A stretch of DNA of 19,824 nt from Verrucomicrobiota bacterium (GTDB taxonomy: Bacteria; Verrucomicrobiota; Verrucomicrobiia; Limisphaerales; CANJXF01). Positions within the stretch are counted from its first letter, which is position 1, and every line of letters starts with the position of its first letter. The stretch spans positions 1 through 19,824 of the forward strand of contig JBBQRQ010000094.1 in assembly GCA_038214755.1 (NCBI GenBank), read 5' to 3'. Under the pieces are notes generated by a model. That model was not told the origin of the DNA, made no database searches, and was given only the letters and a program-made list of their open reading frames with translations. Of the stretch, positions 7,781 to 12,247 are shown piece by piece. The translations under genes and the position numbers were made by a program.

Positions 7781-7973
7781 GTGAACGACGGCGAAGTGGA
7801 AAAATTGCCGGGTTTGAATTCATGTGATACCACGATGAAACACTTAGAAAATTTGTAACGAAAGTCGAAACATTCCACTCAATCGACCGGATTACTCACT
7901 CCACACGCCGCCTGCGATATTTAGTTTTCTTACGGCGTCAATTTTGGGAAGCTGTTTCAACTCAGTCATATTT

Positions 7974-10900
7974 ATGAAAAAGATTTTTGTCTCGGGCAGT
8001 GTGAGTTTTTTCTTTGTCGCTCTTTCGCTGCGCGCGGCTGAGTTCAAATTTGGAAATCAAATCCTGAAAGTCCCCGACGGCTACGAAATCGAACTCGTCT
8101 CCAACACCAACCTCGTTCTTCGCCCCGTCTCCATGGATTTCGATCAGCAAGGCCGCCTTTATGTCACCGACTCGTCCGGCTCCAGCGACAAAGGGCCGAC
8201 GCAATACGAAAAAAAAGATCATCGCGTCATGCGCCTCGAGGACACCGATGGCGACGGCAAGTTCGACAAAAGCATCGTGTTCGCCGACAAGATGATGTTT
8301 CCCGAAGGCTGCTTGTGGTACGACGGGTCGGTTTACGTTTCCGCCCCGCCCAGCATTTGGAAACTCACCGACACCAACAATGACGGCGTCGCAGACGTTC
8401 GCGTGGAATGGCACGAAGGCAAAACGCTCACCGGCTGCGCGAACGATTTGCACGGTCCGTATCTCGGTCGCGACGGCTGGATTTACTGGTGCAAAGGCGC
8501 GTTTGCCGAGCAAACCTACGAAGTAAATGGCAAGCCGTTCACATCGAAGGCGGCGCATATTTTTCGCGCCCGTCCAGATCACAGCGGACTCGAACCGGTG
8601 CTCACGGGCGGAATGGATAATCCAGTCGGCGTCGCATTCTCTCGCGAAGGTGAACGTTTTCTGGCTGGAACATTTTTTGAACCGGGCGGCGGTCTGCGCG
8701 ACGGAGTGATCCATGCGATTTACGGCGGCGTCTATGGCAAGCCGCATCCCGACGTTCTCGACGGCCACAAGAAAACCGGCGACCTCATGCCGGTGATGCT
8801 ACACCTCGGCGCATCCGCTTCCTGCGAGGTGATTTTTTATGAGTCGAAGATTTTTGGCGAGGAGTTTCAGAACAATCTGCTCGTCTGCAATTTCAACCTC
8901 CACAACATCACGCGCCACATTCTTGAGCCCGACGGCGCGACGTTTAAAACCAAGGACAGTGTTTTTCTCAGTTGCGAAAATGACCCTGATTTTCATCCCA
9001 CCTGCGTGCGCGAGGATGCCGACGGCAGCCTGCTCGTGATCGACACGGGCGGCTGGTATAAAATTTGTTGTCCCACGTCGCAGCTTTACAAACCCGATGT
9101 GCTCGGTGCGATTTATCGCATCCGAAAAATCGGCGCGAAAAAGGTCGAAGACGGGCGAGGTTTGAAAATTGACTGGGCGAAAGCGAAACCAGTAGAGCTA
9201 ACCAAATTTTTGGATGACGAACGACCTTACGTCGTCACTCGCGCCATTCATCAACTCGCAAAATTAAAAAATGAATCCGTTCCCGCACTTCGCGAAGTTT
9301 TAAAAGAGTTCAGTCCGAATCTCGCGGACACTCGCCGCAACGCTGTTTGGACGTTGACGCAAATCGATACCCCAAAAGCGCGCCAAGCGGTTTATGCCGC
9401 CTTTCCCGCAGACGCAAACGCTCACATTGATCCAAATGATTCCGTTGCTGCTGCGGCGTTTCATTCCATTTCACTTTGGCGAGACACAGGGGCCGTATGG
9501 GGGAGCGGCCCAGATCAAGATTATTTTCGGGCCGTCCTGGCAATAACCGGCGCAGGAGCCTCCGAAAACCATGGGATGCGCCGAATCGCTGCTGAACTTT
9601 GGGGCCGGATTGGTCATGTGCAAAAAGATTTTGCGGTTCGTAATTTATTTCAAATAGCCCAATACGAAACCCAATATGATCGTGATCGCGTTCTCGAACA
9701 TTCGATAATTTACGCGCTGATAGAATTGAATGATCCAAAAACTACCGCGGAAGGACTAACCGGTTCTCCACGGTTGCGGAATCTGTTCGATTCGACCAAG
9801 CGCATTTCTCTCATCGCTCTCGATCAAATGGACAACGGCGGATTGAAGCCGGAACAAGTCGCGCCGTTTTTGCTTTCAACCAATGCCGCTTTGAAAGAAA
9901 CCGCCTCGTGGATTCTCAGCCACCATCCGGAATGGGGCGATGCGCTCGCCGGATTTTTCCGTGACGCGCTCGGCAAAAAAGAAATTTCTTCCGCCGAACA
10001 AACTGAATTGCAGAAACAACTCGCGCAGCTTTCGTCCAATACCACGATTCAAGAATTGCTCGCGGGGACTTTGCAAAGCGGTTCAAAAAATTCGCGGCTC
10101 ATTGCGCTGCGAGCGATGGGACAAGCCAATCTGAAAACTGCGCCGGAGCCGTGGGCGTCAGAAATTTCAAAAGTTCTCGCGGGCAAAGAATATATTCCCG
10201 AAGCCATTGCTGCCGCTCGCGCTCTCCCGGCGGCCAAAGAAAAATTTTCCGGGTTGACCGACGCGCTTTTGAAAATCGCGCGGGACAAATCACAATCGGC
10301 TGAGTTGCGTTTGAATGCGATGGCCGCGTTGCCGAACGTCGCCAATTTGGAATTGGATCTTTTTGATTTTCTCCGCGCCAATTTGGATTCGAGCAAAGCG
10401 GTTTCGACGCGGACGTCTGCTTCGTCTGTGTTGACGCGAGCCAGGTTGAGTCGGGAACAACTTTTGGTTTTGACGGATTCGGTCAAAACCGTCGGGCCGA
10501 TGGAAGCGATGAAATTAGTAGACGCTTTTGAGAAGGCGGCGGCCACGAATGAGATCGTGGGAGTGAGATTGCTCAGCGCTTTGAAGGACGCAAAAACTTT
10601 TAACACGTTGCGCGTGGAAAGATTGAGACCGCTCTTTGCCAAATATCCTCCCGTCGTTCAAGCGGAGGCAGAAAAACTTTATGCGACGCTCAACGTCGAT
10701 TCGGCCAAGCAAGCCGCGCGTGTCGATGAACTTTTAGCCGCGCTAAAAGGCGGCGACGTGCGTCGAGGGCAAATTATTTTCAACAGTTCAAAGGCAGCTT
10801 GCTCGTCGTGTCATGCGATTGGTTACGCTGGCGGCAAAGTCGGTCCGGACCTGACGAAAATCGGCACGGCGCGCAACGAGCGCGATTTGCTGGAGGCGAT

Positions 10901-11171
10901 TGTTTTTCCGAGCGCAAGTTTCGTTCGCAGTTACGAACCTCTGATTGTCGCGACGCAGTCCGGCGAAGATTACAGCGGCGTTTTGAAAAAAGACGCGCCG
11001 GATGAAATTATCTTGGTCAGCGGGCCAAACGTTGAAGTAAAAATTCCACGCAACGAGATCAAAGAAATGCGTCCGGGAATGATCTCCGTCATGCCTGCTG
11101 GTTTGGATGAACAATTGAGCAAGGGCGAAATGGCGGATCTGCTGGCGTTTCTAAAAGCGACGCGGTGGTGA
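7974..11171 (+). CDS. PVC-type membrane-bound dehydrogenase-like protein (beta-propeller + HEAT-like repeats + C-terminal CxxCH heme c domain)
   Basis: ATG at 7974 gives signal peptide MKKIFVSGSVSFFFVALSLRA. VPDGYEIELV, PVSMDFDQQGRLYV, LEDTDGDGKFDKS.VFA, GGMDNP, DADGSLLVIDTGGW; helical middle; GDVRRGQIIF, CSSCH (10800-10814), GPDLT, SVMPAGL distal Met. Confidence 0.9.
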   Translation: MKKIFVSGSVSFFFVALSLRAAEFKFGNQILKVPDGYEIELVSNTNLVLRPVSMDFDQQGRLYVTDSSGSSDKGPTQYEKKDHRVMRLEDTDGDGKFDKSIVFADKMMFPEGCLWYDGSVYVSAPPSIWKLTDTNNDGVADVRVEWHEGKTLTGCANDLHGPYLGRDGWIYWCKGAFAEQTYEVNGKPFTSKAAHIFRARPDHSGLEPVLTGGMDNPVGVAFSREGERFLAGTFFEPGGGLRDGVIHAIYGGVYGKPHPDVLDGHKKTGDLMPVMLHLGASASCEVIFYESKIFGEEFQNNLLVCNFNLHNITRHILEPDGATFKTKDSVFLSCENDPDFHPTCVREDADGSLLVIDTGGWYKICCPTSQLYKPDVLGAIYRIRKIGAKKVEDGRGLKIDWAKAKPVELTKFLDDERPYVVTRAIHQLAKLKNESVPALREVLKEFSPNLADTRRNAVWTLTQIDTPKARQAVYAAFPADANAHIDPNDSVAAAAFHSISLWRDTGAVWGSGPDQDYFRAVLAITGAGASENHGMRRIAAELWGRIGHVQKDFAVRNLFQIAQYETQYDRDRVLEHSIIYALIELNDPKTTAEGLTGSPRLRNLFDSTKRISLIALDQMDNGGLKPEQVAPFLLSTNAALKETASWILSHHPEWGDALAGFFRDALGKKEISSAEQTELQKQLAQLSSNTTIQELLAGTLQSGSKNSRLIALRAMGQANLKTAPEPWASEISKVLAGKEYIPEAIAAARALPAAKEKFSGLTDALLKIARDKSQSAELRLNAMAALPNVANLELDLFDFLRANLDSSKAVSTRTSASSVLTRARLSREQLLVLTDSVKTVGPMEAMKLVDAFEKAAATNEIVGVRLLSALKDAKTFNTLRVERLRPLFAKYPPVVQAEAEKLYATLNVDSAKQAARVDELLAALKGGDVRRGQIIFNSSKAACSSCHAIGYAGGKVGPDLTKIGTARNERDLLEAIVFPSASFVRSYEPLIVATQSGEDYSGVLKKDAPDEIILVSGPNVEVKIPRNEIKEMRPGMISVMPAGLDEQLSKGEMADLLAFLKATRW

Positions 11172-11260
11172 TTCCTTATCATCACTCACGTCTCATCGCG
11201 TGTTCCTTCAATCCTGAAAGGCCAGTCCCGTGCCTGCGGGACGAGGAACGAGCTACGCTG

Positions 11261-11430
11261 GGGTGTGGTTTCAAGTTGCGGTCACTATCGGTGCTATTAA
11301 AAGCGGCGGAGGGCCGCCGCACTCCAAGACGCTCGCGCGAATTTCGACGACGCAGGAATGTCGCGATAGCGTCTTGGAGTGCGTCAGTCCTCTGGCGCTC
11401 TTGTTCTGACCGCCAGTTTAAATCACACCC
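11261..11430. mobile_element. 170-bp MITE with 24-bp TIRs and 9-bp target-site duplication
   Basis: TIRs GGGTGTGGTTTCAAGTTGCGGTCA (11261-11284) and TGACCGCCAGTTTAAATCACACCC (11407-11430) match at 20/24. They are flanked exactly by GCTACGCTG at 11252-11260 and 11431-11439. Confidence 0.85.
11302..11399. repeat. REP-like inverted doublet, family A, second copy (inside the MITE)
   Basis: Arms at 11302-11333 and 11368-11399, each 29/32 identical to the arms at 1008-1039 and 1072-1103. Confidence 0.9.
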
Positions 11431-11490
11431 GCTACGCTGGGAGCGTCAGAGAAATGTTTCGTCAACTCTGAAAAGAGTTGAATCGGGAAA

Positions 11491-11523
11491 TTAATCCCAA
11501 AGATACCGTTCATCGATCTCATA
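11491..11523 (-). pseudogene. C-terminal remnant of an IS200-like tnpA transposase
   Basis: Minus strand reads TAT GAG ATC GAT GAA CGG TAT CTT TGG GAT TAA = YEIDERYLWD*, resembling the YEIEYDERYVWD* terminus recalled for one IS200-like TnpA subgroup. Only 10 codons. Confidence 0.6.
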
Positions 11524-11700
11524 GCAGACGTGAGAGGGGATTTGATTCAACACTTTCCGGGTTGATGATTTGTTTGCACGATGACCCAGCGTAGCTCGTT
11601 CCTCGTCCCGCAGGCGCGGGACTGGGCTGATTGATCGCAATCCCGTTGGGATTGAATAGCCGACGACGAATCGTGGGTGATGCTAAGGTGATTCAGTCTC

Positions 11701-11726
11701 GGTAGGGCGAGACTCCGTCGAGTCTC
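11701..11726 (+). repeat. Single GTAG-type REP unit (GGTAGGGCGAGACTCCGTCGAGTCTC)
   Basis: GTAG head followed by GAGACTC-CGTC-GAGTCTC hairpin; lies between convergent genes. Confidence 0.6.
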
Positions 11727-11749
11727 CTTTGCAGGAAACCGTATTCAGT

Positions 11750-12247
11750 TTATTCCAACTCCACAATGCCCGTTCGTTTCCGCTGGCGGCATTCCTCGAT
11801 GGCGGTGCGCAGTTGTTCGCGGATTTCTTGGGCGTTGTTCAAACCCTGTAACTCCAGCGTCGGGGTCGAGGTGTCGTTGGTCACGATCACGATGTTGCCG
11901 ACACCAAACATGCGGTAGAGAAATGGTTCAATCAGCGACGTGTCTTTGGCGCGATACAATTCCAGTTCGTCCGTGCGTTTGGACAGGATGCCGCGAATGA
12001 TTTTGATGCGCTCGCTGGTGATTTCGTAGGAAATAAAATTTAGCAGCGACCATTTGGTCAGAAAAATAAAAACCGGAATCAGCAAGAGCGCAAACAAAGC
12101 GTAGCGCGCGTTGCCTTGCGGAAGATGATCGTGGAAATAAATCAAGCCCACTCCAATCGCGATGAAGATAACCACGCTCAAAACGAGAGAGCCCAGGATC
12201 GTCACTGTTGATGGATTGCCTTTAAAGATGATTCGTTCTTCAGCCAT
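11750..12247 (-). CDS. Membrane protein with bacterial PH domain (bPH_2/YdbS-like)
   Basis: Two TM helices, then YEITSERI.I.RGILSKRTDELELYR.KD.SL..PFLYRMFGVGNI.I.T.D.STP.L.L. Confidence 0.85.
   Translation of the reverse strand: MAEERIIFKGNPSTVTILGSLVLSVVIFIAIGVGLIYFHDHLPQGNARYALFALLLIPVFIFLTKWSLLNFISYEITSERIKIIRGILSKRTDELELYRAKDTSLIEPFLYRMFGVGNIVIVTNDTSTPTLELQGLNNAQEIREQLRTAIEECRQRKRTGIVELE

Follow-up and report, generated by a model that had tools for sequence, protein, structure and literature searches.

The nest and its surroundings

The window analysed here, i.e., the whole stretch of 19,824 nucleotides, is contig C94 of an assembly of a Verrucomicrobiota bacterium (designated G000; 5.1 Mb, 175 contigs, 97% complete). 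The gap separating two of its convergent genes contains, at 11168-11694, four nested layers of gene-less mobile DNA (Table 1). From the outside inwards these are a shell with IS4-type ends (layer 1), the arms of an element with a HUH (Y1) transposase (layer 2), a MITE (layer 3) and a pair of REP-like hairpins (layer 4). The original prediction for this DNA had rightly seen a nest, but had counted three levels and overlooked the outer IS4 shell. All four layers are of kinds that have been described before.

Table 1. Features of the nest and of the genes on either side, with positions in the window.
Feature	Position	Strand	Remark
Upstream gene	7944..11171	+	DUF7133, HEAT repeats, cytochrome c domain; convergent with next gene
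7-bp direct repeat, left copy	11168..11174	.	overlaps stop codon of upstream gene
Layer 1 left TIR, IS4-family (IS50-subgroup-like)	11175..11193	+	15/19 identical to autonomous element L335
Layer 2 left arm, outer part	11207..11260	+	first hairpin shortened by deletion; extra hairpin 11225-11242
MITE 9-bp target duplication, left	11252..11260	.	
Layer 3 left TIR	11261..11284	+	19/24 identical to G059 IS end
Layer 4 left REP-like unit	11300..11333	-	GGAG-tagged hairpin; terminator-like on minus strand
Layer 4 right REP-like unit	11368..11399	+	terminator-like on plus strand
Layer 3 right TIR	11407..11430	-	20/24 identical to G059 IS end
MITE 9-bp target duplication, right	11431..11439	.	perfect
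Layer 2 left arm, remainder	11440..11481	+	inner hairpin 11462-11481
Layer 2 transposase stub	11491..11523	-	last ~10 codons and stop of Y1 HUH transposase: YEIDERYLWD-stop
Layer 2 right arm	11547..11654	-	hairpin 11547-11565; core 11585-11628 with extra hairpin 11605-11622; hairpin 11638-11654
Layer 1 right TIR	11669..11687	-	13/19 identical to L335
7-bp direct repeat, right copy	11688..11694	.	
Downstream gene	11750..12247	-	bacterial PH-domain; convergent

The nest region folds with -155 kcal/mol (z -16 versus shuffles). A search of the window against Rfam gave no matches, no promoter consensus was found in 11100-11800, and a terminator scan, which is a weak one, found two terminators as compared to 0.6 +/- 0.9 in shuffled sequence. 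Immediately to the right of the nest lies a GTAG-tagged REP-like hairpin (11702-11722). One of the genomes used for comparison, G009, is unpublished; it was counted only in tallies and in four negative loci, and no positive claim rests on it.

The inner MITE and its ISKra4-family parent

Layer 3 spans 170 bp (11261-11430), has imperfect 24-bp TIRs that are 83% complementary, and is bounded by a perfect 9-bp duplication, GCTACGCTG. The claim that a TIR/TSD-bounded 170-bp insert holding a REP doublet interrupts the left arm of the palindromic element thus proved correct. Removal of 11261-11439 restores the left arm, again as predicted, so that the order of events can be read at this site and shows that the MITE arrived after layer 2.

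In G000, the MITE end motif has 133 matches, compared to 10 in the reversed genome, and these form 37 pairs. The 9-bp duplication (at >=75% identity) is present in 22 of the 37 two-ended copies, versus 0-2 out of 37 at control lengths of 5-8 and 10-13 bp and 5/37 at 4 bp. Counted over full-length copies, with a shift of up to 2 nt allowed for BLAST-defined ends, 31/52 keep the duplication; the 21/52 without it at <=2 mismatches were dropped, and part of them recover with a shift of 1-3 nt. The interiors of the two-ended copies measure ~169 bp when they hold the hairpin family found here (REP-A) and ~211 bp with a second family (REP-B), and furthermore one copy is an empty shell of 63 bp and another a nest of 447 bp. 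The element is therefore short, non-coding and multicopy, with TIRs, a variable target duplication and ends shared with an autonomous IS, which are the features of a MITE; the definition of a type II MITE was taken from the relevant part of PMC10969869. The original prediction had staked itself on the recurrence of the insert ends with variable duplications and on the existence of uninterrupted copies of the outer element. Both were found, the latter on several contigs.

The MITE end occurs in 6 of the 41 related genomes searched, G000 included. The cognate ISKra4 transposase had no match in G000 at 1e-20, and the ISKra4 elements that this genome does contain are only distant ones with other ends. 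The genome G059, however, carries 11 copies of a 1444-bp IS with the ends of the MITE, all of which (11/11) have a perfect 9-bp duplication; G059 has no MITE pair. The IS has two overlapping ORFs that are joined at an A-run, and the best family for orfB is ISKra4 (NF033572, E 1.6e-55). Its 188.9 bits stand against a cut-off of 205 for the whole protein and were obtained with orfB alone (profile 71-422), the frames being unjoined. At another locus, L138, the same ends enclose a transposase, and in a GTDB scan some MITE-type ends adjoin transposase fragments, the fragment being matched in 32/301 genomes.

From the ends, the duplication and the insertion pattern, layer 3 is assigned as a MITE of an ISKra4-family IS, in keeping with the DDE-type MITE that had been postulated on the basis of the window. 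Those parts of Guerillot 2014 (PMC3942029) that describe the ISKra4 family give inverted repeats of 18-39 bp with a terminal C and direct repeats of 8-9 bp, and the G059 IS fits this description with 24-bp inverted repeats and 9-bp repeats. The ISKra4 group in particular (p-MULT 4) has near-perfect inverted repeats and a 9-bp duplication, as seen in the G059 IS, and a transposase frameshift is described there for the ISKra4 group (ISDesp4) and the ISMich2 group. The situation here differs from that described for the group in these passages in that we find non-autonomous derivatives filled with REP-like doublets, and the cognate transposase was not found in G000.

Two other parents or helpers were considered and rejected. 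A resident ISKra4-family element on contig C50 matches the MITE ends at only 12/24 positions and has its own MITEs, such that cross-mobilisation is unlikely. IS256 (PF00872) had no matches in G000. As a separate observation, the neighbour of a REP-loaded MITE at L093:2329-3370 is a broken ISKra4 element whose ends are the same, and the two share a 9-bp repeat between them.

Landing sites of the MITE

The fact that the MITE sits within a palindrome in the window had led to the proposal that it actively targets palindromic repeats as safe havens. We reconstructed 31 empty sites, only two of which have coding sequence on both flanks, and seven lie in repeat families. Compared with the whole genome, where repeats make up 4.4%, this is an excess (p 0.0003). 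However, there is no excess above intergenic DNA: the rate in random intergenic sequence is 17% (p 0.27) or 22.8% (p 0.58), both backgrounds resting on our own rough gene calls. A second measure agrees with this, as 10/94 MITE ends adjoin repeats versus 14.4% expected (p 0.88). Relative to intergenic DNA, the 24 empty sites outside repeats show a slightly greater tendency to form hairpins (z -0.97 versus -0.44, p 0.01), but strong folding is seen at none of the 11 empty sites of the G059 IS (range -3.8 to -13.6 kcal/mol, with a mean of -9.4 for the flanks).

A different rule emerged from the flanks. In a window of 16-18 nt outside the MITE-type end, chosen after the profile had been seen, TTG starts (with a peak at 17) at 27/94 ends in G000, 11/22 ends of the G059 IS and 47/113 others, against a background of 6.4%, and in 10 of the 11 G059 IS copies a TTG accompanies one end or both. 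Of the TTG ends in G000, 11/27 also have a TAnnnT box at the spacing of a -10 element, versus 4/67 of the other ends, and the next gene points away from the element at 23/27 versus 26/67. In G059 alone the numbers for the -10 box are 4/11 versus 1/11, which is not significant (p 0.16). The MITE family thus favours positions that lie ~16 bp upstream of a -35 box, and this matches the ISKra4 group, which according to the passages on its targets inserts 16 bp upstream of sigma-A -35 boxes, with either side facing the box (PMC3942029).

Four of the seven empty sites within repeats likewise have a -35-like TTG at the preferred distance, which argues against palindromes being sought as such. The site in the window has no TTG at this distance, like 15/31 sites in all, and its position is therefore not explained by the -35 rule. 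Most likely, the landing within a palindrome was incidental to an intergenic, promoter-adjacent preference, and we consider active targeting of palindromes quite improbable.

The REP-like cargo and its spread

REPINs, as known from RAYT systems, are inverted doublets of tagged hairpins, and layer 4 has this architecture. The REP-A hairpin has 129 matches, versus one in the control, and 67 inverted doublets were counted; its tag is GGAG or GGAC, not GTAG. A diverged free REP-A doublet is also seen in the window itself, between two genes at ~1000-1110. Layer 4 differs from REPINs in that no RAYT was found flanked by REP-A (0/42 loci, and 0/60 loci by pattern), so that its status as a REP rests on its form and not on a cognate enzyme. 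At one locus (L240), a RAYT-like gene is flanked by a hairpin pair related to REP-A, and the cargo types REP-B and GGAGCGC flank RAYT-like genes.

It had been suggested that the MITE ferries REPs, and several results support this. Among the 67 REP-A doublets, 51 lie at DDE ends, including 12 at ISL3-type ends, and the 39 that are linked to the TIR all fall in one branch (support 96/93), together with five long-branch free copies. The labels change four times on the tree, compared to 21 times when shuffled; the tree is based on 104 columns, with unsettled bootstraps and rough supports, and a single origin of the TIR-linked doublets would be compatible with it, short of proof. These doublets share a common spacer and branch, yet have individual duplications. 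As each copy has its own flanks, the loaded shell would seem to have spread as a unit. In other genomes, 39 two-ended elements from 78 loci fall into 14 interior clusters, approximately nine of which we read as unrelated hairpin cargos and the rest as IS remnants or weak folds; the duplication is kept at <=2 mismatches in 21 of the 38 that could be scored.

Conversely, empty shells might have spread first and then received REP doublets singly through a RAYT, in which case the MITE would be no REP ferry. The empty 63-bp shell, which carries a 9-bp duplication, and the many cargos within the same ends speak for such a course, as do a REP-B RAYT pseudogene in G000 (C10:59766) and the REP-B copies with only one TIR. 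For the initial capture this model fits, but it does not fit the spread, because the TIR-linked REP-A doublets have one spacer and one branch with individual duplications, and because only 1/37 two-ended copies in G000 is empty. The clade disfavours it, and we hold it to be quite improbable as an account of how REP-A multiplied. With respect to the one-TIR copies, 21/42 REP-B copies with the MITE-type spacer are of this kind and break at or near the foot of the hairpin (C10:55952, C9:944, C21:53140), and 14/65 REP-A copies likewise have a single TIR, some of them being merely decayed. The action of a RAYT, deletion or the assembly itself may lie behind such copies.

A REP inside a MITE is already in print. 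QMITE2, as described in parts of Wachter 2018 (PMC5896051), is 150-190 bp long with variable direct repeats of 7-11 bp, contains a GTAG REP and is itself a target of IS elements. What differs here is that parents are identified and that several shells and cargos mix; the passages on QMITE2 name neither a parent transposase nor an exchange of cargo. Our literature search, in a collection with few subscription journals, turned up no paper on the repeats described here or on MITEs that derive from ISKra4 and carry REPs.

The middle layer: remnants of a HUH element

The palindromic arms of layer 2 had been described as 39 bp long; instead, the arm repeat comprises 44 nt at 95% identity (11219-11262 / 11585-11628). 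The transposase-like stub between them, which had also been noted, is real and corresponds to the C-terminus of a Y1 HUH transposase. It is seen in 5/16 arm doublets of G000. The arms are matched in 30/61 genomes searched, and two intact elements, L173 (in G042) and L179 (in G012), consist of two such arms around a 151-aa Y1 transposase that ends in FDERY.WD-stop. Both proteins carry the HUH motif DHVH and the sequence YIAGQEEHH, which corresponds to the signature Y---Q--HH, and the intact transposase scores 77.7 bits with PF01797 and 57.1 bits with NF033573, narrowly over the cut-off of 55.

IS200/IS605 elements proper (subclass 1.1) have asymmetric subterminal hairpin ends and not long inverted arms; they were ruled out for layer 2, whose arms are symmetric, ~100 bp long and inverted. 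Class 3 TnpA-Y1 was ruled out because the tabulated motifs differ. On the evidence of the HUH motif, the Y---Q--HH signature and the C-terminal tail, the parent of layer 2 is classified as TnpA-Y1 subclass 1.2. This subclass, according to the relevant sections of Quentin 2018 (PMC6006769), is close to IS200 TnpA, shares the signature and a conserved C-terminal tail with the layer 2 parent, occurs mostly in Cyanobacteria and Bacteroidetes, and generally lacks typical IS200 terminal structures. Unlike the subclass as described in these sections, the gene here is flanked by ~100-bp inverted arms with three hairpins, and these persist as gene-less repeats. In this respect they resemble TIRtrons, as far as these are described in the part of PMC3733652 consulted.

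Some further observations on this family may be added. The extra hairpin common to both arms of the window copy is missing from most copies, but is present at C31:15404, which suggests a variant subfamily or a conversion from arm to arm. G000 has related Y1 genes (C1:47497) whose arms are similar in plan, yet different in sequence. Y1 transposase-like domains occur in open frames of 970-1440 codons in G000 (C33:16136, C64:10402, C88:19561), with similar frames in relatives, and G055:C1:1734549-1736393 has seven tandem matches to part of the layer 2 arm at ~300-bp spacing.

The outer shell

Outside the HUH arms, 19-bp inverted repeats flanked by a 7-bp duplication delimit the shell (11175-11687), which in the window begins 3 nt past the stop codon of the upstream gene and not within a REP. 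Such ends are present in 39/301 genomes, where they also bound elements of ~1.5 kb as well as other cargos with duplications of 9-11 bp. One of the long elements, L335, has 1525 bp and a single ORF for a 462-aa transposase with a YREK motif, Tn5-type Pfam domains and 305 bits to NF033590 (cut-off 160), and its end matches the signature of the IS50 subgroup, CW------Y---CA-A--W-, at all seven positions by eye. We thus classify this element, the putative parent of layer 1, in the IS50 subgroup of the IS4 family. The parts of De Palmenaer 2008 (PMC2266710) on this subgroup give a length of 1350-1550 bp and, like L335, the YREK motif and the end signature; the direct repeats given there measure 8-9 bp, whereas those of the shell measure 7-11 bp. 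A cognate IS4 transposase was not found in G000.

The shell, unlike the inner MITE, is the layer whose ends adjoin repeats: in G000, 20/34 shell ends do so versus 14.4% expected (p 2.5e-9), and by eye the repeats are mostly REP hairpins. A precedent is ISRm22, an IS4-family element that, according to passages in Tobes and Pareja 2006 (PMC1525189), sits at the axis of REPs. ISRm22 has a 6-bp duplication, whereas the shell has 7-11 bp, hits several REP families and carries HUH-element arms as cargo. The duplication measures 7 bp in the window and 9-11 bp in other copies and is absent or inverted in many, such that a duplication by strict criteria is seen in only 4 of the 15 IS4 shells with two ends in G000. 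Inverted rather than direct flanks would be in line with a deletion that runs from one REP of a doublet to the other; adjacent deletions are discussed in the ISRm22 paper (PMC1525189, in part).

The original prediction had taken the outer element to be both derived from and moved by a HUH system. Its origin is borne out by the arms of the middle layer, but since the outer ends are of the IS4-family DDE type, the element probably reached this site by DDE rather than HUH chemistry. One could still regard the middle and outer layers as a single HUH-mobilised element whose ends are simply the 19-bp repeats, given that arms and stub are Y1-derived, that 11/15 two-ended copies lack a strict duplication and that HUH arms are nearly the sole cargo of the shell in G000. 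This is very improbable, however: the intact Y1 elements L173 and L179 do not have the 19-bp ends, 14/45 arm cores have no such end just outside them (as compared to 30/45 that do), and the same ends bound the 1.5-kb elements, one of which encodes the IS4 transposase, and, in other genomes, cargos of unrelated kinds that have duplications of 9-11 bp.

Other shells in the same genome

In G000, at least five shell families carry palindromic cargo, three of the ISKra4 type, one of the ISL3 type and one of the IS4 type. A sister ISKra4-type MITE of ~204 bp forms 19 pairs, 12 of them with 9-bp duplications, and encloses another REP-A-like doublet (C8:13976-14178, C43:24472-24675). It displays no -35 signal (5/57 ends), so the preference for promoters is not general to all ISKra4-type shells of this genome. 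The full-size ISKra4-family element mentioned above (C50:32710-34086; L136) is flanked by a perfect 9-bp duplication, and 16 bp beyond one of its ends lies a -35-like box. Its ends recur on 11 short elements whose cargo comes from two REP families; one of these families also flanks RAYT genes resident in G000 (C37, C13). An ISL3-family element with one internal stop (C67:20626-21956; L301) has short relatives with the same ends that carry REP-A doublets (C32:33668, C37:44270, C43:17763), with an 8-bp duplication in 2/4 two-ended copies, and this type of end is found in 49/301 genomes with other hairpin cargos. A reciprocal nest exists at C2:92225-92671 (L137), where an IS4 shell with HUH arms lies inside a REP-B ISKra4 MITE and replaces the middle of the doublet.

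How the nest may have formed

The reading that we favour, to which we give a probability of roughly 0.8, is that of a four-layer nest (IS4 shell, arms of a deleted HUH element, ISKra4 MITE, REP pair) in which palindromic cargo was captured rarely and was then likely copied by DDE transposases acting in trans. Each shell would have taken up its cargo once or a few times, the unit then likely being copied by the shell's own transposase. At this locus, an internal deletion of a HUH element would first have given rise to layer 2, which would then have been captured in an IS4 shell; shell and cargo would have inserted just past the stop codon with a 7-bp duplication, and the REP-loaded MITE would later have entered the left arm with its perfect 9-bp duplication. 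This order fits with the decayed shell ends and the perfect duplication of the MITE. It is highly improbable that some of the nests and of the copies with one end arose as chimeras of the assembly or by recombination between repeats, as the fragmented assembly, the many ends at contig edges, the many one-ended copies and the missing duplications might suggest, because at this locus the 9-bp and the 7-bp duplication are each intact, the locus is mid-contig, and a test for swapped flanks in copies whose duplications are bad gave no match.

As for the capture itself, deletion within an IS may leave small end-pairs into which the most abundant mobile DNA of intergenic regions, i.e., REP doublets, then enters. 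A RAYT might drive the insertion of a doublet into such a minimal shell, which would fit with the REP tags that, in several cargos, lie a few bases at most from one of the inner ends. Template switching, as in plant Pack-MULEs, would be another option. It suggests itself because p-MULT elements are thought to move via circles (PMC3942029, in the part concerned). Loaded shells may persist because a pair of hairpins would be nearly harmless if it lies outside a promoter or in the gap that separates convergent genes.

It is furthermore possible, though we find it doubtful, that DDE end-pairs are general vehicles for the palindromes of HUH systems in this bacterial order, in a relay of REP-homing IS50-like and promoter-homing ISKra4 shells, that the hairpin cargo is selected, and that REPs thereby outlive their own RAYT. 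If this were the case, the ISKra4 shell would drop a two-way terminator pair just outside a -35 box, the hairpins would owe their selection to a role as insulator or as a spacer required by the transposase, beyond mere tolerance, and there would be a testable route to REP persistence without a RAYT.

For the little-studied Y1 subclass, layer 2 supplies gene-less derivatives and long inverted arms. As all three parent transposases can be named, together with two different landing rules, the hitch-hiking of REPs in DDE mini-transposons becomes directly testable with defined parts. The finding is relevant to the persistence of REP families in the apparent absence of a RAYT, and in it a promoter-seeking element is seen placing terminator-like hairpins beside promoters.
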